Below are positions 5,795 through 59,187 of a stretch of 64,000 nucleotides of DNA, piece after piece. This stretch comes from an uncultured Nitrospirales bacterium (GTDB lineage: Bacteria; UBA10199; JADGCS01). The stretch lies in NCBI GenBank assembly GCA_964526915.1, contig CAZGMS010000072.1:7341-71340 (forward strand). Direction: 5' to 3'. The notes beneath the pieces are model-generated. The model saw only the letters and a list, made by a program, of their open reading frames with translations, was not told the origin of the DNA and did not search any database. The number at the start of each line of letters is the position of its first letter. Within the stretch, counting starts at the first letter, position 1. A program made the position numbers and the translations under genes.

Positions 5795-6429
5795 TTGCTT
5801 GTTGCTTTTGTTATTCTGGCTGGCACGCCACATGCTGTAACAGAATCTGGCAGATCAGAAATCACAACGCCCCCCGCTCCAACTATTGAATTCTCACCAA
5901 TGACCAATCCCGGAATCGCCACACTGCCAATTCCCATAAAAACTCTATTACCAACTTTCACATTCCCTGCCAATTTTGCTCCGGGACCGATATGAACATA
6001 ATCACCAATGATACAATCATGGTCAATCACAGCGCCAGTATTAACGATACAATGTTTGCCTACAACAGCACCTGGTTGAATAACTGCTCCCGCAAAGATC
6101 ACAGTGCCACAACCAATTTTAACAGAAGGATGCACATAGGCACTTGGGTGAACAACTGTCACCCAAGTGTTATTCATTAATTCTTTAGCAATTTTTTCTC
6201 GAAATCGATTGTCGCCAAACGCCATGAGCAAAGAACATTCCTTGTTTTTGGCCATTTCACTTAAAGGGCCTACAACATTAACACCTAAAACAGTTTTGTT
6301 TCTCTTTGATTCATCGTCATCATATAGGCATTCAACTTTAAACCCACTATCAAGCAAAGTGGCCACGACAACTTTCGCATGCCCACCTGCACCCAAAATA
6401 TAGACCGGATCATTTTGCTTCATCAACAC
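5791..6429 (-). CDS. hexapeptide-repeat sugar N-acetyltransferase (PglD / NeuD family)
   Basis: 212 aa. N-terminal Rossmann-like YILGAGGHAKVV followed by left-handed beta-helix repeats (IGCGTVIFAGAVIQPGAVVGKHCIVNTGAVIDHDCIIGDYVHIGPGA). Confidence 0.75.
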   Translation of the reverse strand: MLMKQNDPVYILGAGGHAKVVVATLLDSGFKVECLYDDDESKRNKTVLGVNVVGPLSEMAKNKECSLLMAFGDNRFREKIAKELMNNTWVTVVHPSAYVHPSVKIGCGTVIFAGAVIQPGAVVGKHCIVNTGAVIDHDCIIGDYVHIGPGAKLAGNVKVGNRVFMGIGSVAIPGLVIGENSIVGAGGVVISDLPDSVTACGVPARITKATSK

Positions 6430-7042
6430 CCCTCTTGATTGAGCCTGTAAATTTTGGCATGGTCACATGCCCCTCAGCATTGATGCCTTTTCTTTGAAAC
6501 AAACGCACTATGGTGATAAATAATATTTTGATATCCAGCAAAATACTTTGATGATCAACATACCAAACATCCAGCTTGAATCTCTCTTCCCACGAAATGG
6601 CATTACGCCCATTAATCTGCGCCCAGCCAGTGATCCCTGGTTTAACCACATGCCGCCTTGTCTGTTCAGGACTGTAAAGCGGCACATACTCCGGAAGAAG
6701 AGGCCGTGGCCCCACAAAACTCATGTCGCCTTTCAATACATTCCACAACTCTGGCAGTTCGTCTAAACTCATTTTTCGCAAAAAAATACCAACTGCAGTC
6801 AATCTCTCTTCATCTGACAATAAATTGCCCTTCATATCACATTGAGTTTTCATTGTTCTAAACTTATACAACACAAATTTTCTTGTGTTCATGCCAACAC
6901 GTTGTTGTTTGAATAACATGTTACCTGGTAAAGTGACCAGCAAGACAAAGGAAATAAATACCAATAATGGAGCACAAAAAACCAAACCAAAAAAGGAAAG
7001 AAAGAAATCTGACGCTCTCTTAAATTTATAACTCTGTACCAT
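6410..7042 (-). CDS. small initiating phosphoglycosyl transferase (PglC / WbaP-C-terminal 'bacterial sugar transferase' family)
   Basis: 210 aa with a single N-terminal TM helix. Conserved motifs KFRTM, DELPELWNVLKGDMSFVGPRP and GITGWAQ. Confidence 0.85.
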   Translation of the reverse strand: MVQSYKFKRASDFFLSFFGLVFCAPLLVFISFVLLVTLPGNMLFKQQRVGMNTRKFVLYKFRTMKTQCDMKGNLLSDEERLTAVGIFLRKMSLDELPELWNVLKGDMSFVGPRPLLPEYVPLYSPEQTRRHVVKPGITGWAQINGRNAISWEERFKLDVWYVDHQSILLDIKILFITIVRLFQRKGINAEGHVTMPKFTGSIKRGVDEAK

Positions 7043-11868: not shown

Positions 11869-13338
11869 TCATCTTTTACAGATTGATTTTAGTAAGAATA
11901 CTATTTTGGATAATCTTGAAGGTAACACGATCTTCAATACAAGATAATATAATGCAAACCAAACAATAATCAAAAATGCCACAACCGCCACCCTCCAATT
12001 TAGTGAGTGGTGAACTCCAATAATATGATAGAGAAAAAAAACTAATGCTGATGGAATACTATTTACAAAAAAAACAACACCTGAAATTTTTATGAATTTA
12101 TAAATAGAAAAAGAATAGTAATGAGTCACCAACAATTGACCAAACAACCTATCAACAAAACCGTAAAGGCCAAAAGACAAGGCCACTCCAGTCAAATGCC
12201 ACATACTCCCAAAGCAAATAAAAGCTGGCATCACCACCACTCTGAATAGATTGAGCACTGTTTTAATGTGAGGTTTTCCGCTACTGAAGACCAAACTACT
12301 GATTATTCCGCCCCCACAAGTTATAAAAATTGAATAAATCGACATCAGACGAACTAACACAGTAATATTTGACCATTTTTGACCAAAAAATAACAAAACA
12401 ATAAAATCTGCAAAAATGATAACCAAAATTGGAAAAGGCAGAGATACTAAAGATGTTATCATCAGGGACTCCCAAAAATTATCTTCAATCTTTGCCTTGT
12501 TATCTTGTGATCTTGAATAAATAGGAAATAACACTTTATCGTACACACCATTGAGTAATGCAGGAAAAAATGTGACCATTCTGTGGGCTAGGTTGAAAGC
12601 ACCAACAGACGACATATCAAGAATTTTTCCAATAAAGAAAGTGTCAAACCTTGCCGACGAGGTAGCAAGAACTCGTCCAACTGATACCCAAATGCCAAAA
12701 GCTAATAGTTGTTTTGCCTCGAGAAATGATCCAAAACTTTTTGGAAGATATCGTGTGAACTGATAGCCAATAATTAGTGACAAGACTGAAGCAACAATTT
12801 TTCCAAAAATAATGCTGTGTGGTCCATAATGTTTCACCGCAAATATCACTGTAACAAATCCATAAACAAGGTGATTGCAAACATTGATAAAAGAAATTTG
12901 TTTAAACTTAAGAGACCTTTGCAATAAACAAGTCTGCAACGATGATAGTCCGATAAACACATAAGTAACAGCTGACCACCTCATCAAACCAAGTAATTGC
13001 TCTGTATTATAGAAACTTGCTAAAAAGGGAGCCAAAAAGAAAATTAGTAACGAAACAAACATTGTAAAAAACACAACGCAACTGAATGCGCTATCAATAA
13101 CAGTATCGTTGATGTCTTTTCTTTGAACAATAGCGATGGAAACTCCAAACTCAGAAAACACCTGCAAAATCACCTGTATGGCCAACACTACCATCACCAC
13201 ACCAAAATCAGCAGGCGTTAACAATCTTGCTAAAACAATACTCAGAATGAGAAGTATACCATTTTGAATTGAAGAACTTGAAAAAAACCAAAAAGCCCCT
13301 TTGACGGCGATTTGTGAATTATTTACTTTCATATACAC
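11869..13338 (-). CDS. wzx: Wzx-type O-unit flippase (MOP / PST family polysaccharide biosynthesis protein)
   Basis: 489 aa, about 12-14 TM helices. N-terminal PST-family pattern (LILSIVLARLLTPADFGVV). Adjacent to the Wzy-like gene. Confidence 0.7.
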   Translation of the reverse strand: MYMKVNNSQIAVKGAFWFFSSSSIQNGILLILSIVLARLLTPADFGVVMVVLAIQVILQVFSEFGVSIAIVQRKDINDTVIDSAFSCVVFFTMFVSLLIFFLAPFLASFYNTEQLLGLMRWSAVTYVFIGLSSLQTCLLQRSLKFKQISFINVCNHLVYGFVTVIFAVKHYGPHSIIFGKIVASVLSLIIGYQFTRYLPKSFGSFLEAKQLLAFGIWVSVGRVLATSSARFDTFFIGKILDMSSVGAFNLAHRMVTFFPALLNGVYDKVLFPIYSRSQDNKAKIEDNFWESLMITSLVSLPFPILVIIFADFIVLLFFGQKWSNITVLVRLMSIYSIFITCGGGIISSLVFSSGKPHIKTVLNLFRVVVMPAFICFGSMWHLTGVALSFGLYGFVDRLFGQLLVTHYYSFSIYKFIKISGVVFFVNSIPSALVFFLYHIIGVHHSLNWRVAVVAFLIIVWFALYYLVLKIVLPSRLSKIVFLLKSICKR

Positions 13339-13512: not shown

Positions 13513-14706
13513 TCACCTAACGATCTTTTTCAATCCTTTAAAAAGGGGACTTATTATGGAGAAAATGAACGGATAAGGATCGCGCCAAGACATTGGTTCA
13601 ATTGTATAGCCTCGTCCCATCAGGCTTTTTATATAACCAAAAGGTCTCAGATATTCCTTGTTTTTTATAATGGCTATGAGATCACCAGCCAAATACCACC
13701 AGAGAATCTTATCAGGGTATTCCTGTCTGAATTTCGTTAATACAGGCAAGAAACCCTGTAGAGCCTCTTGGTACATCAAATAAGGCAGATTGATGCCACA
13801 TCTAATGGCAAGGCTATTTGACATACTCATGCGTCCATTAATTTCCATGAGTTTGAATTGACCATCGCGGGGATCTAATTTGAACTGAGTTCCCGCATAT
13901 CCATAATAGCCAATTTTACGCACGAGTTTGAGACTATAATCTAATAAGGTATCGTTCCAGGTTGTTTCTACTAAAGTGCCTGATAAAAATTTTCCCTGGG
14001 ATCTCTTTTTGTAATTGATCAATAACCCTGTCGGTTGACTGTTCTTGTTAAGTGTCATTAACACAGTCTCGATCCTCTCAAACTCTCCAGGAATAAGATC
14101 TTGCAGTAGTAATTCTCCACCAAATCCATCAAAGTGCTTATAATTTCCTAGCAATTCTCCTTCATGATTACAGATAACTCCTTTTGTCCCATAATGGCTC
14201 AACAACGTACTGGAATGCTCTGCCTTCATGAATAAAGGATAGCTGAGTTTCTCTTCCTTGGAATTCAGCAGACTTTCCAACTCAGATTGGCAAGTAATAT
14301 AATGTGTTTTTGGTATGGGAACACCTAATTCCTCAGCAATTTTGTAAGTGCGCCTCTTTTCCCGCACCAACTTTACTGTTTCCCAATCGGGAAAAGTTGT
14401 CTTCATTTCAGCTTTTAGTTCATTATGTCTTTTTGCCAAAACATCCAAATAACTGTCATTACCAGCTACAATCAATACAGATTCTACGCCAATTTCTCGA
14501 TCAAACCACTTGTTCAGTTTTTCGATGAAATCGACATCCTTTGAATCCAATTGCAATATTTTTTTTACAAAACGGGATTTTGTACACAAACCTTTACCAT
14601 CTGGAGAAACCATGTAAATTGGAATATCATATTTGCATAGACCTCTTATCGCACCAAAAGCCGAAATATGATCACCAAAGATGATTACGGGGGGTGTGTT
14701 TTTCAT
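13513..14706 (-). CDS. ATP-grasp domain protein (carboxylate-amine ligase type)
   Basis: 397 aa. ATP-grasp signature elements QDLIPGEFERI (E-x-I-x-G type) and FKLMEINGRMS (E-x-N-x-R Mg/ATP motif). 4-bp overlap with the downstream-coordinate TPP enzyme gene. Confidence 0.6.
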   Translation of the reverse strand: MKNTPPVIIFGDHISAFGAIRGLCKYDIPIYMVSPDGKGLCTKSRFVKKILQLDSKDVDFIEKLNKWFDREIGVESVLIVAGNDSYLDVLAKRHNELKAEMKTTFPDWETVKLVREKRRTYKIAEELGVPIPKTHYITCQSELESLLNSKEEKLSYPLFMKAEHSSTLLSHYGTKGVICNHEGELLGNYKHFDGFGGELLLQDLIPGEFERIETVLMTLNKNSQPTGLLINYKKRSQGKFLSGTLVETTWNDTLLDYSLKLVRKIGYYGYAGTQFKLDPRDGQFKLMEINGRMSMSNSLAIRCGINLPYLMYQEALQGFLPVLTKFRQEYPDKILWWYLAGDLIAIIKNKEYLRPFGYIKSLMGRGYTIEPMSWRDPYPFIFSIISPLFKGLKKIVR

Positions 14707-15866
14707 CGAATGCCATCCTCAGTTAATAATTTCATGAATGCTTCCTTTTGTTCCCTAAGGTTGAAGTCCAGTGAACCAAGGTCACTCCGAATGCCTTTTC
14801 TGACGCGAATGTCAATAAAAGCAGAACCTTCAGTTGATAATAACGTTTTGATTGCATCGCGAAGAGCTTGTTCCGTTTCAACCGCCGCACCAACAGTCTT
14901 ATAACCCGAATTGTTGGCAATAGCTGTCAAATTTGCCACAAAACCAGCTGAGGGCTGGCCACCAACAGATTCGTGAGCACCATTATTCAAAACCACATGT
15001 AAAAAGTTCGGCAACTTGAGTTTTCCTGCCGTCGTCAAAGAACCCAAATGCATGATAGCCGCCGCATCTCCATCCAAACAAACAACAAGTCTCTTTTTTT
15101 GTGCCAAGGCAATACCAGAAGCAATTGAGCTGGTATGGCCCATAGCACCCACATTTAGAAAATCCTGATTGTGACCAACCCCGCTCAAGTTGCGTAAGCC
15201 GTAAAGCTCGCGTGTCGCTCTGCCTGTTGTTGCAACAAATATCGCTTCTTTCGGCACACACTGAAGAACACACTCAATCGCATTTTCCCGAGTCATGTTG
15301 TAAATACTATCTGAACCCTCCTCTTCTTTTTTCTTTCCTTTTTCAAACATCCCTTTCTTAGCAAGAAGCGCAACAGGGCCACATATCTTTTGAGCAGTGC
15401 GAACCGCCCACCTGGCGGCATCAAACGACCCCTCACCATCATTCTCTATTATTCTGAAGGGAATATCCATAGCCTCCAGTAATAAGGGCGTCAGTTCGCC
15501 CTGCTTTTTATGCTGTGCATGATCTGTAACGCCTGGATCACCGCGCCAGCCAATCAGCAATATCATTGGTATACCATACACCTCTTTGTTGGTGAGCGAA
15601 AGCAAGGGGTTCATGGCATTGCCTATTCCAGAATTTTGCATATATACCAGGGGCACGGTGCCCGTGGCAAAATGATAACCCGCGGCAAGTGCAACAGCAT
15701 TACCTTCGTTCGCCGCGATGACATGACGCTCACTGGGCAAATGAGCTTCGACATACTTGCAGAATTCATTAAGAAGTGAATCCGGCACGCCTGTTATAAA
15801 CGCAACCCCCTCATTTTGCAGGCACTCATAAAATGCTTTCTGATCGATCATAATCAATGTCCTCAC
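14703..15866 (-). CDS. thiamine-diphosphate-dependent 3-substituted-pyruvate decarboxylase (phosphonopyruvate / sulfopyruvate decarboxylase family, fused alpha-beta type)
   Basis: 387 aa. TPP-binding GDG motif region (VVCLDGDAAAIMHLGSLTT ... NNGAHESVGG). Size and domain order match the Ppd/ComDE family rather than the roughly 550-aa pyruvate-decarboxylase type. No PEP mutase partner is present in the window. Confidence 0.65.
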   Translation of the reverse strand: MRTLIMIDQKAFYECLQNEGVAFITGVPDSLLNEFCKYVEAHLPSERHVIAANEGNAVALAAGYHFATGTVPLVYMQNSGIGNAMNPLLSLTNKEVYGIPMILLIGWRGDPGVTDHAQHKKQGELTPLLLEAMDIPFRIIENDGEGSFDAARWAVRTAQKICGPVALLAKKGMFEKGKKKEEEGSDSIYNMTRENAIECVLQCVPKEAIFVATTGRATRELYGLRNLSGVGHNQDFLNVGAMGHTSSIASGIALAQKKRLVVCLDGDAAAIMHLGSLTTAGKLKLPNFLHVVLNNGAHESVGGQPSAGFVANLTAIANNSGYKTVGAAVETEQALRDAIKTLLSTEGSAFIDIRVRKGIRSDLGSLDFNLREQKEAFMKLLTEDGIR

Positions 15867-17215
15867 AACAAACGAAATAGACTATGGAAGTCTCTTTGTA
15901 CATTCCACACAATCTTTATGATTTCACGGCTTTCTTCCCCGGATTTATTTCCATACGCAGACAACGTGATAAACTTCTCTTTGATTTCATCATCTGAAAG
16001 CGGATTTTCAGGTTCTCCTTTGGGGAAATCAACTCTTTCAGTGTAAGATGCTCCATGACAAGTCTCAATTGTAACGATGGCGGCACGCTTTTGCGGCACT
16101 AGGGCTGTGATTTTCTCATCAGCGCAAACAACTATTCTTTTTGCTAGTGAAATGATCTCCGCATTGTTCACATTTTCTGCTGTAAACTCATCAAGGCCAG
16201 ATTTACCTTTCACAATGGCAACGGCCACACTGTATGGAATGCTCATTTTTGCTGAAGAGATGCCTCTGATTTCCGTGTGATCATGTTTGCCTATAACCCC
16301 TTTGTAAGTGGTCACCTTGATGCTTTTGATGTCAGAGACACAAAGACCATGGTTCAATTTGATCTTCAGTGTGGCTTCTATAGCTGGATGCGTGTGCCGA
16401 CAAGAAGCATATGACTTGAAATAAACTTTTTCGATCGAAAAAGGATCTCTATCATTTCTTTCCAAATGAGCCAAATCATGCTCTTTGGCCATCATCGATA
16501 AAAACCCTGTAGGGCCAGCGAGCACGTCATCAAGCCCCTTAAAACATGCTCTGCCCATGATTGATGATAACAAGCCAACCAGCGCAGCACGGCCTACATT
16601 AAATGGTTTTAAATCAGATCCATCTTCAATCACCTTAAGCATTCCTGATGCAGAAATTGCGGCCGCAGACAAGGCATCTTTCAGTTGAGTTTTGGTAAAA
16701 CTCAACATGGCCCCAATGCCCACGGCTGCCCCAAGGGAACCACAAGTGGCCGTAGGATGATAGCCACAATTGTAATGAGCCGGTTGCATGGCACTGGCAA
16801 TGCTAATTGCAGCTTCATAACCAATAATAACACCTTTAAGTAAAGCAGTGCCCTCGACTTTTTCTTTCTCAGCAACAGGTAACAGAGCCGATATAATGGG
16901 TGAACCTGGATGCAAAACACCAAAACGCACGCCATCGTCTAATTCAGCAATATGAGCACTAAGACCATTCATCAAAACAGCATTGATAAGACTCGCTTTT
17001 CTGTTAAAACCAATCACTGTGGCATCACTTTGAGTGTCATTCAAATATTTTAATAGCTCGTCACCTTTTTCTTTCATCATCCGTGCCCCAGCAAAAGTGG
17101 CACCCAGATAATCCAGCAAACACCTTTTCGCTTGTAACACAACAATATCGGGAAAATCCGTATGGCTCAAATGATAGAGAGTATCGATGAATTTATCAGT
17201 AAGGTTATCGGTCAT
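15863..17215 (-). CDS. MmgE/PrpD family protein (2-methylcitrate dehydratase / cis-aconitate decarboxylase family)
   Basis: 450 aa. N-terminal KRCLLDYLGATFAG, central FKSYASCRHTHPAIEA and C-terminal PKGEPENPLSDDEIKEKF are all characteristic of MmgE/PrpD proteins. Confidence 0.8.
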   Translation of the reverse strand: MTDNLTDKFIDTLYHLSHTDFPDIVVLQAKRCLLDYLGATFAGARMMKEKGDELLKYLNDTQSDATVIGFNRKASLINAVLMNGLSAHIAELDDGVRFGVLHPGSPIISALLPVAEKEKVEGTALLKGVIIGYEAAISIASAMQPAHYNCGYHPTATCGSLGAAVGIGAMLSFTKTQLKDALSAAAISASGMLKVIEDGSDLKPFNVGRAALVGLLSSIMGRACFKGLDDVLAGPTGFLSMMAKEHDLAHLERNDRDPFSIEKVYFKSYASCRHTHPAIEATLKIKLNHGLCVSDIKSIKVTTYKGVIGKHDHTEIRGISSAKMSIPYSVAVAIVKGKSGLDEFTAENVNNAEIISLAKRIVVCADEKITALVPQKRAAIVTIETCHGASYTERVDFPKGEPENPLSDDEIKEKFITLSAYGNKSGEESREIIKIVWNVQRDFHSLFRLL

Positions 17216-17226
17216 GTATTATTATT

Positions 17227-18183
17227 TTATCGGAAATAAAACTGGAAATAGCTGGGGCATTCTGATTTTGTATCTTCCCATGCCGCAGTAAACGCACTCA
17301 CTATTGTTTCAGGTAGAGGTCCTTTTTTGACTGCAAAAAGATTCTGCTTTAACTGGTCCCTATTTGAAGCACCTATTATCATTCCATCACCTTCGCTTTT
17401 GTCAAGGAGTGAATGAAAAGCAAGCCACCGATAGGCCGCTTCAGCGGTCTCTATTCCTGATTTTCGGCATGCTATTGTAAGAACATTGACTGCCTCAAAA
17501 TAGGATTTTTTCCAATACCTGTCACGATAACTCTGAAGTCGCGCAAAGCGACCAGACATGGGCTTTTCGTCAAAATTGATGTGTTTTCCTGACAACATGC
17601 CACCAGCCAGAGGATTGAATGCGTAAAAACGCATGCCCAACTTTCTTAAAGCGGGAAACAACTCGCCCTCAACGTTGCGGGTCAATCCGTTATACATCCC
17701 CTGATACACACTTGGCCTGAGCCAGCCACGTTCTTTGCAAAGATGCCATATGTCCACAACCATCCAGGCGGGAAAATTACTTAATCCCAGTTCCTTAATT
17801 TTCCCCTGTTCATGGAGGTTTGCACACGCTTCCAAGGCCCCCTCAATGGGGGTTTGAGCATCTGGAAAATGAAGATACAAAATATCAACCGAATCACGGC
17901 ACAGGCGGCGCAGTGATTCTTCAAACTGCATGATCACCGCAACACCATCAAGTTTGCCCGTAACCCGGGGATGAACTTTGGTCGCAAGACAAAGAGAATC
18001 TTCCGTAAACTCATTCAGAAAAGTGCCAAGAATTTTTTCGGTTTCGCCTTCGTTATATACGTAAGCCGTGTCCAATTCATGGTAACCTGCTTCAATGAAG
18101 CATTTCACCATGGCACGACTACCCTCGGTATCCACCTGAGGACCAAAAGTCATTGTTCCCAATATCAGTTTCATCATATCCAT
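17227..18183 (-). CDS. aldo/keto reductase family oxidoreductase
   Basis: 318 aa. N-terminal LGTMTFG and the HELDTAYVYNEGETE motif region of AKRs. Confidence 0.8.
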   Translation of the reverse strand: MDMMKLILGTMTFGPQVDTEGSRAMVKCFIEAGYHELDTAYVYNEGETEKILGTFLNEFTEDSLCLATKVHPRVTGKLDGVAVIMQFEESLRRLCRDSVDILYLHFPDAQTPIEGALEACANLHEQGKIKELGLSNFPAWMVVDIWHLCKERGWLRPSVYQGMYNGLTRNVEGELFPALRKLGMRFYAFNPLAGGMLSGKHINFDEKPMSGRFARLQSYRDRYWKKSYFEAVNVLTIACRKSGIETAEAAYRWLAFHSLLDKSEGDGMIIGASNRDQLKQNLFAVKKGPLPETIVSAFTAAWEDTKSECPSYFQFYFR

Positions 18184-18198: not shown

Positions 18199-19089
18199 CT
18201 AAATTGACCCTTTTGCTGAGCACAAAGCATCGCTATCATAACTGTCAATAACTCGTTTGACAAGATTGACCTGCTTGGCTCGCTTTTTTGCCTCAGCCAC
18301 AGTCGTTTCCCAACCATGCGTTTTGGCAACTGAGCCTCCTGTTTTAAGATATATAGGGGAACCCACCCGTATCATTTCTGGCACTTCATAATGGCGAATA
18401 AAACCACCGGACGACGCGGGATTTTCTGTATGAATATCGATCGGGATGCTGATGGCTTGCCTTATAGCGGCAAGCATTTGCAGTTGAATGTCCCTGACCG
18501 GGTTGATCGAATTTGCTCCTACATTTTCCAGAAGTTTGGCGGAACAAGGATTGCCATGACCGCAATGGGCAGATATTTTGAATTTACAATCAGAAGGAAG
18601 CTCACCTTGCTTGCGCATTTCATCTAACACCCACAAAAGTCCTTCATCATAAATCAAAAAACCTCTACACCCCAATTTGCCAGCACGTTTAACATCCTCG
18701 ATGGCACGAACGATTTGTTCCTGCCCACGGAGCCGGAGCCCCATTTTTTGACCTTCCTCCGTGTGAACTGATGCGCTCGTATCGTAAGTTGCCCGCGGAC
18801 CGATGGCCAGCACGAGTTCCACCTGCCATTGTTTTGCCAACGCCACCATTTCATTTATTTCATCATCAGTCAGAATCATGATGCCCTTTGTTTGCGTAAC
18901 GCGGTGGATAACGGCACCAAAGGTATCCAATTCTTCAAGCAAAGCCTTCATTGAGCCGGGTCCCTGTATACCAGGCACCTCAAACCTGTACTGCGCGCCA
19001 TCCGCGAATCGCTTTGCAGACGATGGCAGATCATACGCATCTCCTGATGGTAATCCTATTTTATTAAGAAACAACCTGGTCTCTTTCAT
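18199..19089 (-). CDS. hypothetical protein, possibly an alpha/beta-barrel enzyme (unassigned)
   Basis: 296 aa. Alternating beta/alpha-like pattern and a Cys/His-rich segment KISAHCGHGNPCSAK. I could not match ComA, PEP mutase, HpcH or DRE-TIM motifs. It is tightly packed inside the acid-metabolism cassette. Confidence 0.25.
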   Translation of the reverse strand: MKETRLFLNKIGLPSGDAYDLPSSAKRFADGAQYRFEVPGIQGPGSMKALLEELDTFGAVIHRVTQTKGIMILTDDEINEMVALAKQWQVELVLAIGPRATYDTSASVHTEEGQKMGLRLRGQEQIVRAIEDVKRAGKLGCRGFLIYDEGLLWVLDEMRKQGELPSDCKFKISAHCGHGNPCSAKLLENVGANSINPVRDIQLQMLAAIRQAISIPIDIHTENPASSGGFIRHYEVPEMIRVGSPIYLKTGGSVAKTHGWETTVAEAKKRAKQVNLVKRVIDSYDSDALCSAKGSI

Positions 19090-19129: not shown

Positions 19130-20005
19130 CTACCCCAGAACAATACTATTTTTTCTTGGATCGTAGCAACATCCCATCCGCAGGCTGACAATGCGCACAC
19201 CGCTTGCCCTTTGTGGCCCAATTTCTACAAATGAATTTAATGCCGTAATGCTACCCCCAATCCCCAGCGGCCCACAAAAAGTATTGTTCAGTGTTGCCGT
19301 AATCAATGCTTCAATCTCGTTTTCGTTTCCAAAAGTCTTGTTTGCCATAGCATCGAGCATGAGGCAAGTCGCTTCATAATGTGTTCTTCCTATCCCAACA
19401 GCAGGAACGCAGGGTGTACATCCAAGCAAACCTACCATTTCTACTGCCCAACCGGCAATTTCCGTGCTGATTCGAGAAGAATCGTGGTGGTGAAATACTC
19501 TATAGGTGCGGGATCGTATTTCCGGCCCCCCTCCAAGCATCATCACAGTCAAACGAAGCTGACTGCCTTTGATTGTTTTCATTCTAATCGGGGCAGATGT
19601 CAACATTCCCGAATCTTCGTAAAGCCCCTTTGTTTGTACGAGCCTTTCCATATCATTGCCACACACAGCCATCGGACGGCCTGGTAAAGCTCGCAAACCT
19701 GCTACAATACCATTATCGACAATTTCTAAAAGTTTTCCAACATTGCCTTCAATGTCAGCCTCATCACCTACCTCAAGCAAAACATGGGGCACCCCTGTAT
19801 CGTTGCATAAAGGTAATTTGTTTTTTTCTGCGACGATCGCATTTTCTAATATCATCTCAAGAATCCACTTCGCTTTCTGCTCTGTTTCCCTCGCAATGGC
19901 ATTCTCATAGGCCAGACGCTGATCATGACGAAAACTTGTGCTCGCTTTTATCAATGCCTCGGCAGACGCTTCTAGAATTTCAGATAGTTTTATTGCCACG
20001 CACAC
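19130..20005 (-). CDS. Fe-S hydro-lyase alpha subunit (class I fumarate hydratase / L(+)-tartrate dehydratase alpha family)
   Basis: 291 aa. CNDTGVP motif (family CQDTG-type cluster ligand region) plus further conserved Cys residues. Its partner beta subunit is immediately downstream. Confidence 0.7.
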   Translation of the reverse strand: MCVAIKLSEILEASAEALIKASTSFRHDQRLAYENAIARETEQKAKWILEMILENAIVAEKNKLPLCNDTGVPHVLLEVGDEADIEGNVGKLLEIVDNGIVAGLRALPGRPMAVCGNDMERLVQTKGLYEDSGMLTSAPIRMKTIKGSQLRLTVMMLGGGPEIRSRTYRVFHHHDSSRISTEIAGWAVEMVGLLGCTPCVPAVGIGRTHYEATCLMLDAMANKTFGNENEIEALITATLNNTFCGPLGIGGSITALNSFVEIGPQRASGVRIVSLRMGCCYDPRKNSIVLG

Positions 20006-20020: not shown

Positions 20021-20551
20021 TCATTTGACATGAAAAATTGATTCCCCGTTGGCCGCGGCTATGATGCCGGGCAAGCCACGAATCGTTAATTCATGCAACG
20101 CTTCCATGCCCTCTTCTTCAAACGCTATCACCCTTTTAGAAATCAATCGACTCTGAAAAAGAGCTGATGTCGGCGGCACAACAATAAAAATGGCCCCATG
20201 TCTGGATATATCTTTGACTGTTTGCTTTTTAAGAACACCTTTTCCGATATGCAACCGAACACCCGCTTCAGACAGAATACCCATCGTTCCTTCGATTTCT
20301 TCTTTATTGCTTGAGGTTGGGCCAAAACCGGCTGGGCTAAAAGCGGCATGCATAAAAGCCGCACCTTCCATGGTAATCGGTAGTTCCGTTATCGTGCCAT
20401 CTTTTATCATTTTAGCAATCTTCGGCAATATGGCATCTCTGGCGGTATAAACCACACCGTGTATTTCCACACGACTACCGACTAGCACATTCGACAAATC
20501 AGTCCTCACAGGTGTTTCAATTTTAAGAAGCAAATTAACACATCCTCTCAT
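20021..20551 (-). CDS. Fe-S hydro-lyase beta subunit (fumarate hydratase C-terminal / TtdB family)
   Basis: 176 aa. GVVYTARDAILPK matches the family G-x-x-YTARDAAH-K motif. Separated from the alpha subunit by a 15-bp gap. Confidence 0.7.
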   Translation of the reverse strand: MRGCVNLLLKIETPVRTDLSNVLVGSRVEIHGVVYTARDAILPKIAKMIKDGTITELPITMEGAAFMHAAFSPAGFGPTSSNKEEIEGTMGILSEAGVRLHIGKGVLKKQTVKDISRHGAIFIVVPPTSALFQSRLISKRVIAFEEEGMEALHELTIRGLPGIIAAANGESIFHVK

Positions 20552-20593: not shown

Positions 20594-21736
20594 TTATTTT
20601 AAGATGAGTTTTAAGTAGGTTGCTTCATTTTCAATAACTCCGTATGCTTTTGCCCGACTGATGATTTTTTTCGCCCAGTGTTTGTGTGGGTTTATTTCAT
20701 TCATTTTATTGGCCTTCACACTTTTAACCACACCTCCTGGTGTTTCTAATATTTGTAGGGCATCCTCAAATTCTTCCCTGATCACCGTCTGCATGGCATT
20801 GACATATTTGGCGTGCGAGGGGTGAATGATTGTTTTACCGACAAATCCATTGGCCTTATCAAGAATAACTTCCCTCATCAAGCCATCAACCGCTTCATTT
20901 AAGATCGGACTTCTGGTCAACAAAGAACGATGAATATCATCGGCCAATAAATTATCAAGATTATCCCCTTTGTGCACCAAAAAATACTCCCACACTGGTC
21001 CAGACACCGTGTAGTTATCTTCCTCTCTGCTGAAAAAATTCAACACATCAGACAAACAATCTTTGACTGTCAAGATATCATAAATGGAGTAGTTGATCCC
21101 TCGCCTCACTCCAAACATCGATGAAATATCAGTTCCTCCAATCCTGATATTCAGAACAAGTTTTTTAAAAGGCTCCATCATTGTTCTGATCTGACTCAAC
21201 TCATCAGTTCTCAATTCCTTATACGCTATTGTTTTTCCCTCAAGAATGGGCATGCCATACAAAGAAACTTTTAATTTACTATTCAGAGATTCAAGACAAT
21301 TGAAGTACTCTTGACAATTATGACTACAGAACTTGGGGAACGCAAATCCAGACAAAACGTTAGATTGTTCGCTCGTTAACTTCTCAACAAACCCCTTGAA
21401 TTGCTCTGGATGACGCACGCGCAGAAAGATTAATGGTATTTCATCGTGTGTGATCGCCCCTAAAGCCAAGGCTTCTGCAATTTTGTTCAATTGACTTAAC
21501 ACACTGTTCTCGGCCACTGGCAAGATCATTTCATCAACAGCATCTTCAAAGTCCATGACAATCGATGTTGCCTCAAGCACATCCTTTTTTAATAATTTAT
21601 CAACAATATTTTGCGTGCCCGGCATATAGAGTGTGGCGCCTAGACAATACTGCAACAAATCTTTATCAGTGAATTTGTTAAATTCTATTGGTTCCAAAAA
21701 AAATTGGGTGTTTGGATGATATCTGTGGTGCTTCAT
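20594..21736 (-). CDS. HpcH/HpaI aldolase / citrate lyase beta-subunit (CitE)-like lyase with a C-terminal extension
   Basis: 380 aa. N-terminal ATLYMPGT (cf. CitE SMLFVPG) and DFEDAV (cf. D-L-E-D-A/S-V Mg-binding motif). About 90 aa longer than canonical CitE. Confidence 0.55.
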   Translation of the reverse strand: MKHHRYHPNTQFFLEPIEFNKFTDKDLLQYCLGATLYMPGTQNIVDKLLKKDVLEATSIVMDFEDAVDEMILPVAENSVLSQLNKIAEALALGAITHDEIPLIFLRVRHPEQFKGFVEKLTSEQSNVLSGFAFPKFCSHNCQEYFNCLESLNSKLKVSLYGMPILEGKTIAYKELRTDELSQIRTMMEPFKKLVLNIRIGGTDISSMFGVRRGINYSIYDILTVKDCLSDVLNFFSREEDNYTVSGPVWEYFLVHKGDNLDNLLADDIHRSLLTRSPILNEAVDGLMREVILDKANGFVGKTIIHPSHAKYVNAMQTVIREEFEDALQILETPGGVVKSVKANKMNEINPHKHWAKKIISRAKAYGVIENEATYLKLILK

Positions 21737-26225: not shown

Positions 26226-27625
26226 ACAACCACACCTTTCAAAATAATGTCGCCTGGCTTCCTAAACACTTTATCATATAACCAGACCAAAGCTGCCGCA
26301 TCCAAGATTAAAATAGCAAAATACGCCGCAAACATATAACGTTGCTCGTAATGCGTGGGTAAATGAATGGCTATTTTATACAAATACAATAACAACAGAA
26401 TTGATATTTGTCGAAACTCCTTCCGATAAAAAATCAAAGCCAACATGACCAATAAAAACATAACAATAACAATCGCTGTAAAACAAACATGAATAAAAGC
26501 CTTAGCCGTAAATGATTCTGATGTTGCAGCATCTAACAACATCATTGATACTAATCTTTTAAGCAAAACTTTTGCATAATATTCCGGGTGCGCCTTAACG
26601 ACTTGCATGGCATCGTCCATCAAGAGATCCGATGACTCCTTGACCCACCGTGGGCCATCATATCCCAGCTCATGTAATCTCTTTTGACCGGCATCATCAG
26701 AGTTTTCAAAACCATAGGAATTTGGATACTCACCCAACCCTTCCCAAAAGCCTTCCCCTGTATTGGACCAATAATCATAATGCCCTGTGCTTTTTTGATA
26801 CAAAATTGAAAACGGAGCACCAAAGAAAACCACAACAATAAGAAACATCGATACTGAATTAGCAAAACTAACAAACAATGTTTTCTTTTGAAGCAATAAA
26901 TAGACAAAATACACACCTGGCAAAAATATGATGAATGGTCTAAACCAACAAAAAAATGCAATGGATACGCCTGACAAAACAACCCACACAAGAGATCTTT
27001 CACTATGAAATATTTTTAATGAGAAATAAGTTGCTGTAATCATTCCCCACAATTCAAAAACATCACGACTAGCCACAGAGGACAGTAAAATAAATGGTAC
27101 AAATAATATATACAAGACTGAAGAAAGGTATGCTATGGATGAACGCATAAAAATAAGTTCAGCGATCAAAAACACAAGCACAGCCATAAATGAATCAAAG
27201 ATAATTTGAATAATCTGCAGTGGCAGAAAACTTTTTGGAAATATTTTCCAGAAGATCCCAAGAACAATTGCATAACCTGGAACATCTGTTAGAAGCGGGA
27301 AGGTATAATCACTGTTGGTTTTATTGAGAATTGCCTCCCTTTGAAAATAATCCACATTGATTCTCTTTTCCTTCATATTCAAAAGATTTTTGTAGGCCTG
27401 AGAATCTGGATCTTTAGGGCTCTTCCAATCTAATTCTCCGCCTGACTTAAAACCAATTCCATCGGCAATATTGCTTGCAATAGTATATTGTTCGCCCATA
27501 CGACCAGAATCGAAATAGAGATCATGAAAGACAAATAAACCAACAACCCTTACCGCAAGAGCTATGAGAAACAATATAAGTAATGTATTTTTCATCGTTC
27601 TATACAAAGAAACCGGAAACTCCAT
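26222..27625 (-). CDS. polytopic membrane protein, candidate GT-C fold glycosyltransferase (ArnT / PMT_2-like)
   Basis: 467 aa, about 10 or more TM helices with a soluble segment after the TM block. A first-loop acidic motif (FHDLYFDSGRMGEQY) resembles the GT-C D/E loop. Supported mainly by context: a GtrB/ArnC-like GT2 lies 2.7 kb upstream in the same arm. Confidence 0.35.
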   Translation of the reverse strand: MEFPVSLYRTMKNTLLILFLIALAVRVVGLFVFHDLYFDSGRMGEQYTIASNIADGIGFKSGGELDWKSPKDPDSQAYKNLLNMKEKRINVDYFQREAILNKTNSDYTFPLLTDVPGYAIVLGIFWKIFPKSFLPLQIIQIIFDSFMAVLVFLIAELIFMRSSIAYLSSVLYILFVPFILLSSVASRDVFELWGMITATYFSLKIFHSERSLVWVVLSGVSIAFFCWFRPFIIFLPGVYFVYLLLQKKTLFVSFANSVSMFLIVVVFFGAPFSILYQKSTGHYDYWSNTGEGFWEGLGEYPNSYGFENSDDAGQKRLHELGYDGPRWVKESSDLLMDDAMQVVKAHPEYYAKVLLKRLVSMMLLDAATSESFTAKAFIHVCFTAIVIVMFLLVMLALIFYRKEFRQISILLLLYLYKIAIHLPTHYEQRYMFAAYFAILILDAAALVWLYDKVFRKPGDIILKGVVV

Positions 27626-28727
27626 TGATCACCTGATCTATAAGGGGATCCAAACCTGCCCATAAAGGAAGTCTTAAAATGCGTTCACTTGTATGTTCTG
27701 TGTTCATCATTGTTCCAAAACACCTGGCATATTTAGACCCATAAGGAGAGCTGTGTAATGGCACATAATGTGATACGGCATTGATACCCATTTCTTTGAG
27801 ATGTGACATGATATCTGATCTTGTTCTAGAATCTTCGAGCAACAAATAATACATATGAGCGTTGTGTACACATCTGGCAGAAATCATTGGCCGTCTCAAA
27901 ACACCTTTCTGTTCTAAAACCAAAAAGGCGTCATGATATCGTTGCCAAAGACACATTCGATTATCAGTTATTTTCTTTGCCTCATCAAGCTGTGCATAAA
28001 GAAATGCCGCCACCATTTCACCTGGTAAAAAGGAAGACCCCAAATCCTGCCATGAATATTTATCAACCTCACCTCTTAAGAACTGCTTTCGATTCGTTCC
28101 CTTCTGCCAAATAATTTCCGCTCTCCGCACAAAACGTTCATCATTCATTAACAATGCACCGCCCTCACCGGAAGAAATATTTTTTGTGTCGTGAAAACTG
28201 AGACATCCCATCTGTCCAATCGTTCCAAGATATTGGTTGTTATATTGAGACATGATAGCCTGTGCGGCATCTTCGATAACCAACAGATGATGTCTTTTCG
28301 CTATGGATGTGATGGTTTCCATTTCACAACCAACGCCCGCATAGTGGACGGGAACGATGGCTTTTGTTTTTGGGGTGATCGCATCCTCTATGATCTTTTC
28401 ATCGATGTTCAAGGTGTCTGACCTGATATCAACAAAGACAGGGACTCCACCACGCAGAACAAATGCATTGGCTGTAGAAACAAATGTGAATGAGGGCATG
28501 ATGATCTCATCACCTTGCTGAATATCGGCTAATAAAGCGGCCATTTCCAACGCGCCCGTGCATGAATGCGTCAGCAGAACCTTTTGACATCCAAGTTTTT
28601 TTTCCAACCATTCATGACATTTTTTTGTGAAGAGACCATCACCAGACAAACGCCGATCCTCTAACACCTTTTGAATATACTTGATTTCATGACCTGTAAT
28701 GAATGGCTTATTGAATGGTATTTTCAT
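27600..28727 (-). CDS. DegT-family aminotransferase, WecE-like (dTDP-4-keto-6-deoxyhexose 4-aminotransferase)
   Basis: Strong resemblance, from my recollection of WecE, over IIMPSFTFVSTANAFVLRGG, GEGGALLMND and DKYSWQDLGSS. RmlA/RmlB lie in the same arm. The track ORF starts at 28766; MKIPFNKP at 28727 is the more plausible start. Confidence 0.75.
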   Translation of the reverse strand: MKIPFNKPFITGHEIKYIQKVLEDRRLSGDGLFTKKCHEWLEKKLGCQKVLLTHSCTGALEMAALLADIQQGDEIIMPSFTFVSTANAFVLRGGVPVFVDIRSDTLNIDEKIIEDAITPKTKAIVPVHYAGVGCEMETITSIAKRHHLLVIEDAAQAIMSQYNNQYLGTIGQMGCLSFHDTKNISSGEGGALLMNDERFVRRAEIIWQKGTNRKQFLRGEVDKYSWQDLGSSFLPGEMVAAFLYAQLDEAKKITDNRMCLWQRYHDAFLVLEQKGVLRRPMISARCVHNAHMYYLLLEDSRTRSDIMSHLKEMGINAVSHYVPLHSSPYGSKYARCFGTMMNTEHTSERILRLPLWAGLDPLIDQVINGVSGFFV

Positions 28728-29505
28728 CATTGATTTTTTCGGCCACACAGACCAGGGAACCTCCAAAGGGGAATGACAAACCGTAAGCGATCATCAACAT
28801 TTCAACATCACAAACCCGTTCGAAGATCCAATTGATCCATCGTGCAATTTTGAATTCAGAAAGAATGTCCTGAGTTGAATTCGATTTTAAACTCTTTTTC
28901 AACCAGATTCTAGAAACAAACATGAACGGCAACAAGAGGGCCATGAAAGACGAAACCCAAACCATTCTGAACCCGCTTTTTTTTAGTTTGATGGTAAGTT
29001 CTTCACAAGTGTACCTTCGTTTATGGCAAGCAACCTCATCCTGAGAACTCCACAACCAAGCATGTTGCGGCACAGTCAGAATAAGCCCCCCACCCTTTTT
29101 CAGACCCTGATGAAATTGATTCAAGACACACTCATCTTCCAGAACATGTTCCAGAACATCAAACGCCCCAATAACATCATATTCTTCCCTATACGGCATT
29201 TGCCGCGCGTCCATTTGGAACAGTGACGCATTTTTGAGTCTCTTCTTTGCAAAGCTCAAACCCTCAGAAAACAAATCGCTCCCTGAAATCTGAGTCTCTG
29301 GAAATGACTTTTCGATGGCCGACAAAACAAAGCCAGTTCCACAACCCACCTCAAGAAAAGATTTCATCTGTGGGAAAAATTTTTTAAGAGCCCACAAAAT
29401 CAGGCGGTTTCTTGAACAGAACCAGAAGTTCCGAGATTCTAGTTTCTGGATTTGCCAAAAATAGTCACTATCAAAACCTTGTGAAAGATTAACTGCGCCT
29501 ATCAT
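28708..29505 (-). CDS. class I SAM-dependent methyltransferase
   Basis: 265 aa. Motif I FLEVGCGTGFV and motif II region DVIGAFDVLEHV. Confidence 0.65.
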   Translation of the reverse strand: MIGAVNLSQGFDSDYFWQIQKLESRNFWFCSRNRLILWALKKFFPQMKSFLEVGCGTGFVLSAIEKSFPETQISGSDLFSEGLSFAKKRLKNASLFQMDARQMPYREEYDVIGAFDVLEHVLEDECVLNQFHQGLKKGGGLILTVPQHAWLWSSQDEVACHKRRYTCEELTIKLKKSGFRMVWVSSFMALLLPFMFVSRIWLKKSLKSNSTQDILSEFKIARWINWIFERVCDVEMLMIAYGLSFPFGGSLVCVAEKINDENTIQ

Positions 29506-31266: not shown

Positions 31267-32340
31267 TTACCCTCTATTGTACTGCTTGTCATAAAACTCC
31301 AAATATTTTAGATTTCGAACATCATCAGTCCATTTTTTGTGTTCGTGGTACCAACGAACTAATGCGGAAATTTCATTCTCAAAGAGTCGCCTTGGCTTCC
31401 AAAACAACTCTTTTCGAAGCTTTGAGCTGTCCAGAGCATACCGTCTATCATGCCCTGGACGATCAGCGACGTACCGCATGAGTTTTTGTGATGTGCCCAG
31501 AGCTCTTCCCATCAATCGGTCCACGACATCACAAATCGTTGTCACGATATGAATATTACTCCTCTCTGTCTCTCCGGAAATCGCATATGTTTCACCTATC
31601 TTTCCTTGTTCTAAAATGGCCTGCAAAGCCTCACAGTGATCGAGGACATGAATCCAATCACGTACGTAAAGTCCGTCACCATAAACAGGCAGTTCTTTGT
31701 CTTCAAAAGCATTTAAGATCATCAATGGAATCAGTTTCTCTGGAAATTGCCAAGGGCCATAATTGTTCGAACAATTACTGATTATCACTGGCAAGCCATA
31801 GGTCCTGTGCCAAGCCCGCGCCAGATGGTCAGAAGCAGCCTTTGATGCAGAATATGGGCTATTGGGTTTGTAAGGTGAATTTTCGTTAAACGGTGGTGAT
31901 GTAAGATCCAGAGCACCAAAGACTTCATCTGTCGAAACATGCAAAAACAACTTGTCGTCAGAATCTACCCAGAGCTTTTGTGCAGATTCGAGCAACGTGA
32001 ACGTACCCTCAATATTTGTTTTTATGAACGGAGTCGCACCAAGAATGGAGCGATCAACGTGACTTTCGGCCGCAAAATGAACGATCGTGTCAATTTCGTA
32101 TTTAGATAAGATATCGCGAATGTTTGCACCATCACAAATATCGATTTTTTCAAAAAAGTACCTTTTGTCAGCAAATTCTGCATGGACATCTTTCAAATTT
32201 TCAAGATTCCCTGCGTACGTCAGATTGTCAACATTGACAACAAGACCCCGAAAATCCGCCTTCTTGAGAAGAGAACGAATAAAATTGGAGCCGATGAACC
32301 CCGCGCCTCCAGTCACCATGATGTTTTTTAGTTTTCTCAT
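31267..32340 (-). CDS. rmlB: dTDP-glucose 4,6-dehydratase
   Basis: 357 aa. [14 protein letters not shown] Rossmann motif, the [10 protein letters not shown] catalytic motif and RmlB-like length. Adjacent to rmlA with a 4-bp overlap. Confidence 0.9.
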
Positions 32341-33206
32341 GTATTTTCCAAAACCCTCAATAGATATTCACCGTAACCAGATTTTAACAATGGCTGCGCA
32401 AGTTGCCTGAGTTGCTTGGCAGAAATGAATCCCATTCTGTAGGCGATTTCTTCTATGCAGGCAATTTTCAGACCCTGTCGATCTTCAATAGTTTTTATAA
32501 ACATCGCTGCATCGGCCAAAGAAGCATGAGTGCCCGTATCTAACCAGGCAAAACCTCGCCCCAACATGCGCACATTCAGTTTGCCTTGGGCCAAATAGGC
32601 AGTATTGACGTCTGTGATTTCCAGTTCCCCCCGAGGAGAAGGCTTGATTGTTTTTGCAATTTTAGCGGCCACATTGTCATAAAAATACAATCCCACAACG
32701 GCATAATTTGATTTGGGTTGCTCCGGCTTTTCCTGCAAAGAAATGGCTTTCATATTTTTGTCAAATTCAACTACTCCATAGTTCTGAGGATTGTTGACAT
32801 AATAGCCAAATATTGTTGCGCCGTTCACGTTCACTGAAACATTTTTCAGCAATCCCTGAAGCCCATCGCTGTAAAATATGTTATCTCCCAAAATCAGGCA
32901 AACAGAATCACCTGCAATAAAATTTTCACCCAAAATAAGAGCCTCCGCCAAACCACGCGGCTGTTCTTGAACTTTGTAGTTAAAAGAAAGTCCCAATTTA
33001 CTGCCGTCACCAAAAAGCATCTTAAATCGGGGAAGATCTTCTGGTGTGCTGATGATGAGAATTTCACGAATGCCAGCAAGCATAAGTGTGGAAAGAGGGT
33101 AATAGATGAGCGGTTTGTCGTACACCGGTAACAGCTGTTTACACGCTACTTGCGTTATTGGATACAACCTGGTTCCAGAGCCACCTGCTAAGATAATGCC
33201 TTTCAT
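32337..33206 (-). CDS. rmlA: glucose-1-phosphate thymidylyltransferase
   Basis: 289 aa. [18 protein letters not shown] and the LGDNIF motif. Canonical RmlA. Confidence 0.9.
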
Positions 33207-36966: not shown

Positions 36967-36968
36967 AG

Positions 36969-42419: not shown

Positions 42420-42430
42420 TTTCCCACGTT

Positions 42431-43795: not shown

Positions 43796-43796
43796 T

Positions 43797-46406: not shown

Positions 46407-46414
46407 GGACTCTG

Positions 46415-47155: not shown

Positions 47156-47159
47156 GTCA

Positions 47160-55393: not shown

Positions 55394-55394
55394 T

Positions 55395-56645: not shown

Positions 56646-56667
56646 GGTAGCTTCCTCCTATGATGAT

Positions 56668-57489: not shown

Positions 57490-57518
57490 AGTTTACCTCT
57501 CCACTCTGATAGGGTTAA

Positions 57519-59147: not shown

Positions 59148-59187
59148 CTTTTAACCACAATATTTATCAGTTATCCTGACAAGGAAA

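Follow-up and report, generated by a model that had tools for sequence, protein, structure and literature searches.

The 64,000-nucleotide stretch analysed here, taken from contig CAZGMS010000072.1 of an uncultured Nitrospirales bacterium and referred to below as the window, carries a gene (14703-15866) for a thiamine pyrophosphate (TPP)-dependent decarboxylase of the phosphonopyruvate decarboxylase (Ppd) family. Our analysis favours the view that this protein is a neofunctionalised Ppd-family enzyme which, without a phosphoenolpyruvate (PEP) mutase (PepM), provides the decarboxylation step of an eight-gene organic-acid tailoring cassette located in polysaccharide loci. The cassette encodes a CitE-like lyase, the alpha and beta subunits of an Fe-S hydro-lyase, a U32-like barrel protein, an AKR7-type aldo-keto reductase (AKR), an IRG1/PrpD-like protein, the decarboxylase and an ATP-grasp ligase, and most likely builds a hydroxy-acid decoration of surface sugars. 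An earlier reading of the sequence (the original prediction) had proposed that the 2-oxoacid substrate is probably neither phosphonopyruvate nor sulfopyruvate, a proposal now backed by phylogeny, genomic context, active-site changes and the type of the adjacent reductase. It had also named an MmgE/PrpD protein (15863-17215) and an aldo-keto reductase (17227-18183) as neighbours, and both were verified by Pfam; these are two of the eight genes. The genes by which the system is defined, namely those of the CitE-like lyase, the U32-like protein and the ATP-grasp ligase, had gone unnoticed in the prediction.

The decarboxylase and its family

The predicted open reading frame (ORF) 14703-15866 was verified and lies on the minus strand, with the reservation that its length of 387 amino acids (aa) relies on a GTG start. 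An ATG at position 15851 has the sequence GAGGA 8 nt upstream, and both a 100% identical database twin and the retrieved homologues start with MID or MIE, which suggests that the real product is probably 382 aa long. Residue positions given below follow the 387-aa numbering. The protein contains the Pfam domains TPP_enzyme_N (PF02776, residues 10-119) and TPP_enzyme_C (PF02775, residues 238-353) with no middle domain, and scored 419.5 bits with the NCBIfam model TIGR03297 ('phosphonopyruvate decarboxylase'; cutoff 312.5 bits), in agreement with its earlier description as a short fused Ppd/ComDE-type TPP protein. With the same model, six proteins associated with the cassette scored 396-421 bits and five PepM-linked proteins 467-547 bits. 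Since both groups exceed the cutoff, annotation pipelines call all of them Ppd, and database sources label the homologues of the window protein 'phosphonopyruvate decarboxylase'.

A PepM-free clade within the Ppd radiation

Related loci (n=82) consisted of the best 80 reference-genome matches to the decarboxylase, with one genome per species, and two additional look-ups. In an offline classification, homologues of the cassette were present in 40 of the 80 loci, in 42 when the two look-ups were included and in 43 counting the window. The same gene set surrounds two decarboxylase homologues, one with 76% identity in a genome of 8.2 Mb and one with 67% identity in Prosthecochloris sp. CIB 2401. 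Cassette loci were found in Clostridia, Bacteroidia (Bacteroidales, Cyclobacteriaceae), Chlorobia, Opitutia, Prochlorococcus and Adlercreutzia, and also in Enterocloster citroniae and Mediterraneibacter massiliensis. A PepM gene was adjacent to the decarboxylase gene in all 40 non-cassette loci, where it encodes a nucleotidyltransferase-PepM fusion of about 433 aa with the motif EDKTGLKKNS, and in none of the 42 cassette loci, within a reach of about 10 kb.

The neighbour-joining tree of the 82 decarboxylases contained a split that matches the cassette or PepM context exactly (bootstrap 200/200). Median identity amounted to 52% and 54% within the two clades, against 43% (range 37-51%) for pairs drawn from different clades. 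The tree was enlarged with four distant AepY proteins and with two concatenated ComD+ComE sequences as outgroups; aepX is annotated beside three of these aepY genes (Mycetohabitans, Streptomyces, Rhizobium), and only aminotransferases are listed beside that of Azospirillum. In the enlarged tree the cassette clade was monophyletic (99/100) and joined the PepM-linked clade in a group without the distant AepYs (98/100), all PepM-linked proteins grouped without the cassette clade in 0/100 replicates, and ComDE was the outgroup to all Ppds (81% bootstrap). The cassette clade is thus nested inside PepM-linked Ppds, which indicates descent from a genuine Ppd. Regarding the placement of the protein in an unrelated TPP clade, considered in the original prediction as a refutation, the enzyme lies inside the Ppd radiation, although in a separate, PepM-free clade. 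As judged from these sequence comparisons, the cassette-clade decarboxylase is probably a neofunctionalised, PepM-independent Ppd.

The TPP motifs E54, GDG (266-268) and NN (294-295) are kept in both clades, whereas four other sites distinguish them. Position 116, located three residues ahead of a His common to both clades, is Glu in 100% of the PepM clade, in 4/4 distant AepYs and in Rhodobacteraceae ComDE, and is occupied by His, Trp or Arg in cassette proteins (His in the window). The Arg-Pro motif at positions 365-366, in the C-terminal tail, is present in 97% of the PepM clade and in 4/4 distant AepYs, and has been lost in the cassette clade, with Ser-Leu in the window protein. Conversely, the cassette clade shows an invariant Arg at position 216 (Lys, Met, Phe, Leu or Tyr in PepM-linked proteins) and an invariant Asn at position 238 (Thr, Cys, Met, Leu or Val). 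The swaps at these sites may represent changes in substrate contacts.

Phosphonate and sulfonate pathways

Scans of all 56 window ORFs of at least 150 aa revealed no member of the PEP_mutase, ICL, ComA, ComB or ComC Pfam families, and tblastn of the 64-kb window with the PepM of a related locus as query gave no match at E<=10. A PepM hidden Markov model (HMM) was built from 37 sequences and, with filters disabled, compared with each stop-to-stop ORF of 40 aa or more. Its best score in the window was 4.6 bits, while PepM was detected in 40/40 positive-control loci. The sole K-x-CGH match in the window lies after a stop codon in a non-coding frame. These results bear out the earlier statement that the 64 kb contain neither a PEP mutase nor ComA/ComB/ComC-like genes.

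An ordinary Ppd fed by a PEP mutase encoded elsewhere, leading to a glycan with 2-aminoethyl- or 2-hydroxyethylphosphonate, is quite unlikely. The score above the TIGR03297 cutoff, the names given to the homologues and the nesting of the cassette clade within true Ppds would fit this explanation, and the view of the genome is limited to 64 kb. However, adjacency of PepM and Ppd genes is the norm (PMC8931226; PMC8942020), and the contrast between 0/42 cassette loci and 40/40 sister-clade loci with PepM within about 10 kb argues against it, as do the loss of Glu116 and Arg365-Pro366 and the fact that no 2-aminoethylphosphonate (AEP) transaminase, PntC-type cytidylyltransferase or phosphonate transferase is found among the recurrent cassette partners. 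Moreover, seven further conserved enzymes would be left without a role.

A sulfonate pathway, in which 3-sulfopyruvate would be decarboxylated to sulfoacetaldehyde and the AKR would reduce this product to isethionate for a sulfonated substituent, is highly improbable. In its favour, the family includes ComDE, sulfoacetaldehyde is an anionic aldehyde, and tripartite ATP-independent periplasmic (TRAP) transporters and lyases resembling adenylosuccinate lyase (ADSL; second-best match XcbD), described below for some cassette loci, occur in sulfonate metabolism. On the other hand, the window protein scored 94 bits with the sulfopyruvate decarboxylase beta model (TIGR03846, cutoff 221.5) and 87 bits with the alpha model (TIGR03845, cutoff 148), and neither ComA/B/C nor cysteate synthase or sulfolactate dehydrogenase appeared in the window Pfam scans or among recurrent cassette partners. 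In addition, isethionate has no carboxylate or amine usable by the ATP-grasp ligase. The identity of the decarboxylase as ComDE itself was ruled out on the basis of the sub-cutoff scores, the outgroup position of ComDE and the lack of Com genes. Altogether, a phosphonate or sulfonate product is unlikely, and the case for a non-phosphonate role of the decarboxylase is strong but circumstantial.

Glycan context of the cassette

The window genes are transcribed in the order PF15617, Fumerase_C, Fumerase, 296-aa protein, AKR, PrpD-like protein, decarboxylase, ATP-grasp ligase and Wzx (Table 1). All 43 cassette loci are flanked by flippases, glycosyltransferases, DegT, Rml genes or priming transferases. 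The DegT gene was found in about 25 of the 42 fetched cassette loci, mostly a few genes from the cassette, and an RmlA/RmlB pair also accompanies it in loci L003, L004, L005, L030 and L036. In the window, DegT is a probable source of an acceptor amino sugar, and RmlA/RmlB would probably supply a 6-deoxyhexose acceptor. No counterpart of the cassette was found in Escherichia coli genomes, no cassette-type decarboxylase was found on plasmids, promoter and terminator scans gave nothing above chance, and no description of the cassette was found in the literature.

The location of the cassette in glycan loci would be fortuitous if its enzymes made or degraded a free organic acid. Organic-acid catabolism typically employs enzymes of the CitE, PrpD, fumarase and AKR types, and a TRAP DctM large permease adjoins the cassette in five Clostridia loci (L011, L018, L028, L030 and L032; in the last at 5093-6457). 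Such a free-acid operon is nonetheless very unlikely given that 43/43 loci are glycan-flanked, that the cassette travels with an ATP-grasp ligase, and that in the window it overlaps the ligase gene, which is followed by Wzx. For the tailoring cassette, the DctM neighbour may mean that some hosts import an organic-acid precursor.

Table 1. Genes of the cassette and associated glycan genes in the window
Feature	Position	Strand	Match or remark
Wzx-type flippase, directly downstream of the cassette	11869..13338	-	PF13440, PF01943; MOP flippase
ATP-grasp ligase	13513..14706	-	PF15632 ATPgrasp_Ter, CPSase_L_D2; start overlaps decarboxylase stop by 4 nt
Ppd-family TPP-dependent decarboxylase, cassette clade	14703..15866	-	probable start ATG 15851
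MmgE/PrpD-family protein, IRG1 / IDS-epimerase branch	15863..17215	-	PF03972, PF19305
AKR7-type aldo-keto reductase, predicted acid-aldehyde reductase	17227..18183	-	PF00248
296-aa TIM-barrel protein, remote Peptidase_U32 member, unannotated	18199..19089	-	no Pfam/NCBIfam match at 1e-3
Fe-S hydro-lyase alpha subunit	19130..20005	-	PF05681, E 1.8e-48
Fe-S hydro-lyase beta subunit (class I fumarase / tartrate dehydratase type)	20021..20551	-	PF05683, E 2e-19
CitE-like C-C bond lyase/synthase, first cassette gene	20594..21736	-	PF15617 'C-C_Bond_Lyase', E 1.4e-108
DegT-family sugar aminotransferase	27600..28766	-	PF01041, E 3e-85
RmlB (dTDP-glucose 4,6-dehydratase type) and RmlA (nucleotidyltransferase)	31267..33206	-	PF16363, PF00483

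Partner enzymes

The CitE-like protein, a TIM barrel of 380 aa, was found in 40 of the 43 loci. Its AlphaFold model (predicted local distance difference test, pLDDT, 70) gave as top structural matches the acyl-CoA lyase beta subunit, (S)-citramalyl-CoA lyase and malyl-CoA lyase, with Mycobacterium tuberculosis CitE and CLYBL also near (Foldseek E 4e-8 to 1e-6) and isocitrate lyase only at rank 49. The profile of the family aligns with malyl-CoA lyase and CLYBL through the FED and GF-GK-x-IHP motifs, and residues E64, D65, R106, E166 and D203 are invariant. By sequence and predicted fold, including the HpcH/CitE TIM barrel and the FED, R-V-N, E and GGTD metal/substrate motifs, the protein fits the CitE / malyl-CoA lyase / citramalyl-CoA lyase family, and the use of a CoA thioester is predicted. 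The possibility of a cryptic PepM was considered for this protein and rejected: the EDK(X)5NS motif is absent, the PepM HMM gave -1.3 bits and the nearest folds are of the CitE type.

The CitE-like TIM barrel belongs to the PEP/pyruvate-binding superfamily (Pfam clan) of PEP mutase. It is conceivable, but extremely improbable, that the CitE-like barrel and the U32-like barrel invariably encoded beside it generate phosphonopyruvate or another 2-oxoacid with a carbon-phosphorus (C-P) or carbon-sulfur bond without PEP mutase, with the decarboxylase pulling the reaction, as happens with PepM. The alternative offered in the original prediction, an unconventional route to a glycan decorated with phosphonate or sulfonate, is not supported: residues typical of the PepM clade have been lost, the sulfopyruvate decarboxylase scores are low and the barrel is CitE-like. 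If true, a PepM-free C-P route would give biology a second way to form C-P bonds, one that is widespread among bacteria of the gut and the sea.

Regarding the Fe-S hydro-lyase, the alpha subunit passed a single model, the TIGR00722 subfamily (105.5 bits, cutoff 100.65), and the enzyme was far below the cutoffs of the fumarase and tartrate dehydratase equivalogs. All NCBIfam equivalogs were below cutoff for the beta subunit, which is present in 37/43 loci. Exactly four cassette loci (L004, L007, L009 and L026) lack the FumA/FumB hydro-lyase, and all four carry in the same place an ADSL/3-carboxymuconate-cycloisomerase-like lyase together with a Cyclase-family (PF04199) hydrolase (e.g., L009, 11386-13754). 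The second-best NCBIfam match of the replacement lyase was XcbD (379 bits, cutoff 600). Lactonisation followed by hydrolysis amounts to a net hydration, from which we infer that the hydro-lyase step hydrates an unsaturated polycarboxylate. The loci with the replacement include aerobes such as Prochlorococcus and Cyclobacteriaceae.

The 296-aa U32-like protein is encoded by the most conserved gene of the cassette, with 70-80% identity across phyla. Its family is devoid of Pfam domains and comprises more than 6000 database relatives, the best 120 matches being 77-86% identical. The window protein reached 12.8 bits with PF01136 (threshold 22.4), and the family was matched by 19 of 28 divergent relatives (best E 2.4e-8). 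The AlphaFold model shows a beta/alpha barrel (pLDDT 65). No cysteine is invariant (Cys176 is present in 6/41 proteins), whereas about 11 arginines and five histidines are, a set that fits a polyanionic substrate. Two functional assignments were discarded: a UbiU-type Fe-S hydroxylase, since the Fe-S cysteines of U32 proteins are not conserved, and any chemistry taken from Foldseek, which returned generic TIM barrels (class II aldolases, dihydrodipicolinate synthase, pyruvate kinase) with template modelling scores of 0.3-0.4, too weak for this purpose. Distant relatives on Thermomicrobium, Enterobacter and Streptomyces replicons occur in unrelated contexts with no other cassette genes. Some records call the family 'peptidase' or 'U32 family peptidase'; given that the Fe-S cysteines are not conserved, this naming is probably misleading.

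The AKR is present beside the decarboxylase in 41/43 loci. Its best relatives in the PDB, over the full length, are AKR7A2 and AKR7A1/A3 (E 4e-85). We take Arg231 and Arg327 of AKR7A1 to be carboxylate-binding arginines. The equivalent of Arg231 is invariant in 41/41 cassette AKRs, and that of Arg327 is variable (T/R/K/Q). According to works cited in PMC10221418, AKR7A2 is a succinic semialdehyde reductase. These sequence relationships suggest that the cassette AKR reduces a carboxylate-bearing aldehyde.

Another possible function for the TPP enzyme is that of a carboligase, transferring an acyl-anion equivalent onto a keto-sugar or an unsaturated acid. TPP enzymes in glycan pathways can build branched sugars, as in the case of YerE; the cassette enzymes making unsaturated polycarboxylates could provide acceptors, and the altered active-site residues might form an acceptor site. 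A role mainly as carboligase is still unlikely: the closest relatives are simple decarboxylases, the Ppd/ComDE family offers no precedent, and an acid-aldehyde-type reductase encoded next to the decarboxylase in nearly all loci fits an aldehyde that is released.

The closest structures to the PrpD-like protein are Bacillus subtilis IRG1 (E 9e-39) and IDS epimerase, followed by cis-aconitate decarboxylase, and its scores with the PrpD equivalog models were 28-41 bits (cutoffs 458-950). The equivalents of IRG1 His103, His159, Lys207 and Lys272 are conserved family-wide.

In 28 of the 43 loci, window included, the cassette comes with an ATP-grasp ligase, either of the type found in the window or PylC-like; several of the other loci are incomplete contigs. 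Two ATP-grasp ligases are encoded in L015, L016, L024, L027, L075 and L004; L004 has an additional ATP-grasp-SDR fusion, and L013 an AMP-binding enzyme and an MBOAT protein. In some lineages the acid may be attached via two amide bonds or extended.

Proposed pathway

We favour an organic-acid tailoring pathway whose steps are arranged in an inferred order. It would start with the assembly, by the CitE-like and U32-like proteins acting as partners, of a polycarboxylic hydroxy or oxo acid from central metabolites, namely an acyl-CoA and a 2-oxoacid. The IRG1/PrpD-like enzyme and the Fe-S hydro-lyase would then remodel this acid by dehydration or isomerisation and rehydration, in a way comparable to PrpD and aconitase in the methylcitrate cycle. 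The outcome would be a 2-oxo-dicarboxylate analogous to phosphonopyruvate but bearing a carboxylated group where the latter has its phosphonate. The TPP enzyme would decarboxylate it to an acid-aldehyde, which the AKR7-type reductase would turn into an omega-hydroxy acid. The ATP-grasp ligase would form an amide bond between the hydroxy acid and a nucleotide-activated amino-deoxyhexose produced by RmlA/RmlB/DegT, and Wzx would export or flip the finished repeat unit. Speculative candidates for the product are acids of the 2,4-dihydroxybutanoate type, of the 4-hydroxybutanoate type and branched analogues. Two equally speculative routes are 4-hydroxy-2-oxoglutarate to malate semialdehyde to 2,4-dihydroxybutanoate, and 2-oxoglutarate to succinic semialdehyde to 4-hydroxybutanoate.

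In Vibrio cholerae O1, perosamine bears a 2,4-dihydroxybutanoyl (N-(3-deoxy-L-glycero-tetronyl)) group, with RfbKLMNO as the corresponding enzymes. In locus L007 the cassette is found with Wzm/Wzt, an RfbT-like methyltransferase and DegT, a layout like that of V. cholerae O1. By analogy with this system, a product of the 2,4-dihydroxybutanoyl type is plausible but unproven.

Several points weigh against this pathway. The decarboxylase is still above the curated Ppd equivalog threshold of TIGR03297, and the searches for PepM covered no more than the 64-kb window and the fetched loci. Phosphonoacetaldehyde is also an anionic aldehyde, which an AKR7-like enzyme might accept. The substrate of the decarboxylase is putative and derived from context only, as are the putative roles of the U32-like and PrpD-like proteins in the scheme; the catalytic residues of the latter, being shared family-wide, cannot separate a decarboxylase from an isomerase or a dehydratase, and the AlphaFold models of the U32-like and CitE-like proteins are only of moderate confidence. 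Finally, L004 lacks both AKR and PrpD, so that the scheme is not identical everywhere and variants of the product must exist. Taking both sides together, the window enzyme is probably a repurposed Ppd within what is probably a new tailoring pathway.

Comparison with known systems

The cassette decarboxylase shares with AepY/Ppd (EC 4.1.1.82, e.g., AepX-AepY-AepZ of Bacteroides fragilis) the fold, the fused PYR/PP architecture of about 380 aa and the TPP motifs (ANEGNA with the catalytic Glu, GDG...NN). It differs in lacking a PepM neighbour, Glu116 and Arg-Pro, in having Arg216 and Asn238, and in scoring 50-130 bits lower on TIGR03297 as a clade. The partners also differ: PepM, AEP transaminase and cytidylyltransferase in the case of AepY/Ppd, and CitE-like, U32-like, AKR7, PrpD-like, hydro-lyase and ATP-grasp proteins in the cassette. 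ComDE belongs to the same branch of the TPP superfamily and acts on a substrate with a beta-anionic group, but is usually made of two split subunits, whereas the window decarboxylase is fused. The window AKR resembles AKR7A2/AKR7A1 (succinic semialdehyde reductase, aflatoxin aldehyde reductase) over its full length (E 4e-85), and the cassette AKRs keep the Arg231 equivalent; they are bacterial enzymes of a glycan cassette, however, and the equivalent of AKR7A1 Arg327 is not conserved.

Enzymes of methylcitrate and itaconate chemistry (PrpD and aconitase, IRG1, Ccl/RipC, malyl-CoA lyase and CLYBL) rearrange, cleave or form hydroxy-polycarboxylates, as the enzyme set of the cassette would, and the cassette likewise combines a CitE-type lyase with a hydratase and an enzyme of the PrpD/IRG1 family. 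In contrast to those systems, the cassette members of this set fall below equivalog thresholds, the hydratase is of the class I fumarase type and not an aconitase, and the setting is that of glycan biosynthesis, with a TPP decarboxylase, an AKR and an amide ligase coupled to the set. Cj1438 of Campylobacter jejuni HS:2 is an ATP-grasp amidoligase. The logic of V. cholerae O1 RfbKLMNO and of Cj1438 is alike in that a small-acid module and an amide-forming enzyme stand beside a DegT-type aminotransferase, although the acid-making enzyme set of the cassette is entirely different from that of V. cholerae O1. UbiU/UbiV, TrhP and RlhA are O2-independent hydroxylases of the Peptidase U32 superfamily. 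The 296-aa protein has in common with this superfamily the TIM-barrel topology and relatives matching PF01136 (19/28), but is itself below the Pfam threshold, and the cysteines of the U32 Fe-S signature are not conserved among its homologues.

Other features of the window

The window has a GC content of 41%, and its 56 ORFs with a length of 150 aa or more all lie on the minus strand. Almost all of these ORFs are glycan-related; they make up at least three consecutive polysaccharide or nonulosonic-acid loci, with two Wzx-type flippases at 11869-13338 and 49115-50425. The only clearly non-glycan gene seen, at the low-coordinate edge (131-1276), encodes an AAA_14/DUF4143 ATPase. The region 39099-49046 contains a second ATPgrasp_Ter-type ligase (44497-45681), a PHP-domain protein (43797-44522), a DUF7033 protein (42431-43795), a FemAB-like protein (39099-40118), two methyltransferases and an asparagine synthase (47160-49046), which points to another amide-linked decoration, distinct from the first. 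A run of four radical-SAM genes occupies 54458-60594, two of the SPASM or plain type (54458-55393 and 55395-56645) and two with B12-binding domains (57519-59147 and 59188-60594); their neighbours are methyltransferases, DegT, GNAT and NeuB (62038-63111), and the run may serve a C-methylated or otherwise modified nonulosonic acid or sugar. Inside a glycan locus, a gene for a heparinase II/III-like protein (33203-34816) follows one for a 735-aa fusion of zinc-dependent alcohol dehydrogenase and GFO/IDH/MocA domains (34813-37020).

Significance

A clade named 'phosphonopyruvate decarboxylase' by annotation pipelines, accounting for 42 of the 82 related loci, is probably outside phosphonate synthesis, and genome-mining or ecological surveys that count ppd genes would overrate phosphonate potential. 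The phosphonate inventories cited here define pathways from PepM onward (PMC8931226; PMC8942020), and the cassette would therefore escape them. From the evolutionary point of view, the decarboxylase has probably been taken over from phosphonate metabolism for a new substrate, and the residue swaps involved can be pinpointed. PF15617, the 296-aa U32-like family and the IRG1-like PrpD branch have no assigned reaction, and the cassette gives them a defined context. Since the polysaccharide loci of gut Clostridia and Bacteroidales, of Treponema-free Spirochaete neighbours and of Chlorobia, Verrucomicrobia and Prochlorococcus often carry it, the cassette probably specifies a common, chemically undescribed decoration of surface glycans, which bears on immune recognition and phage receptors.

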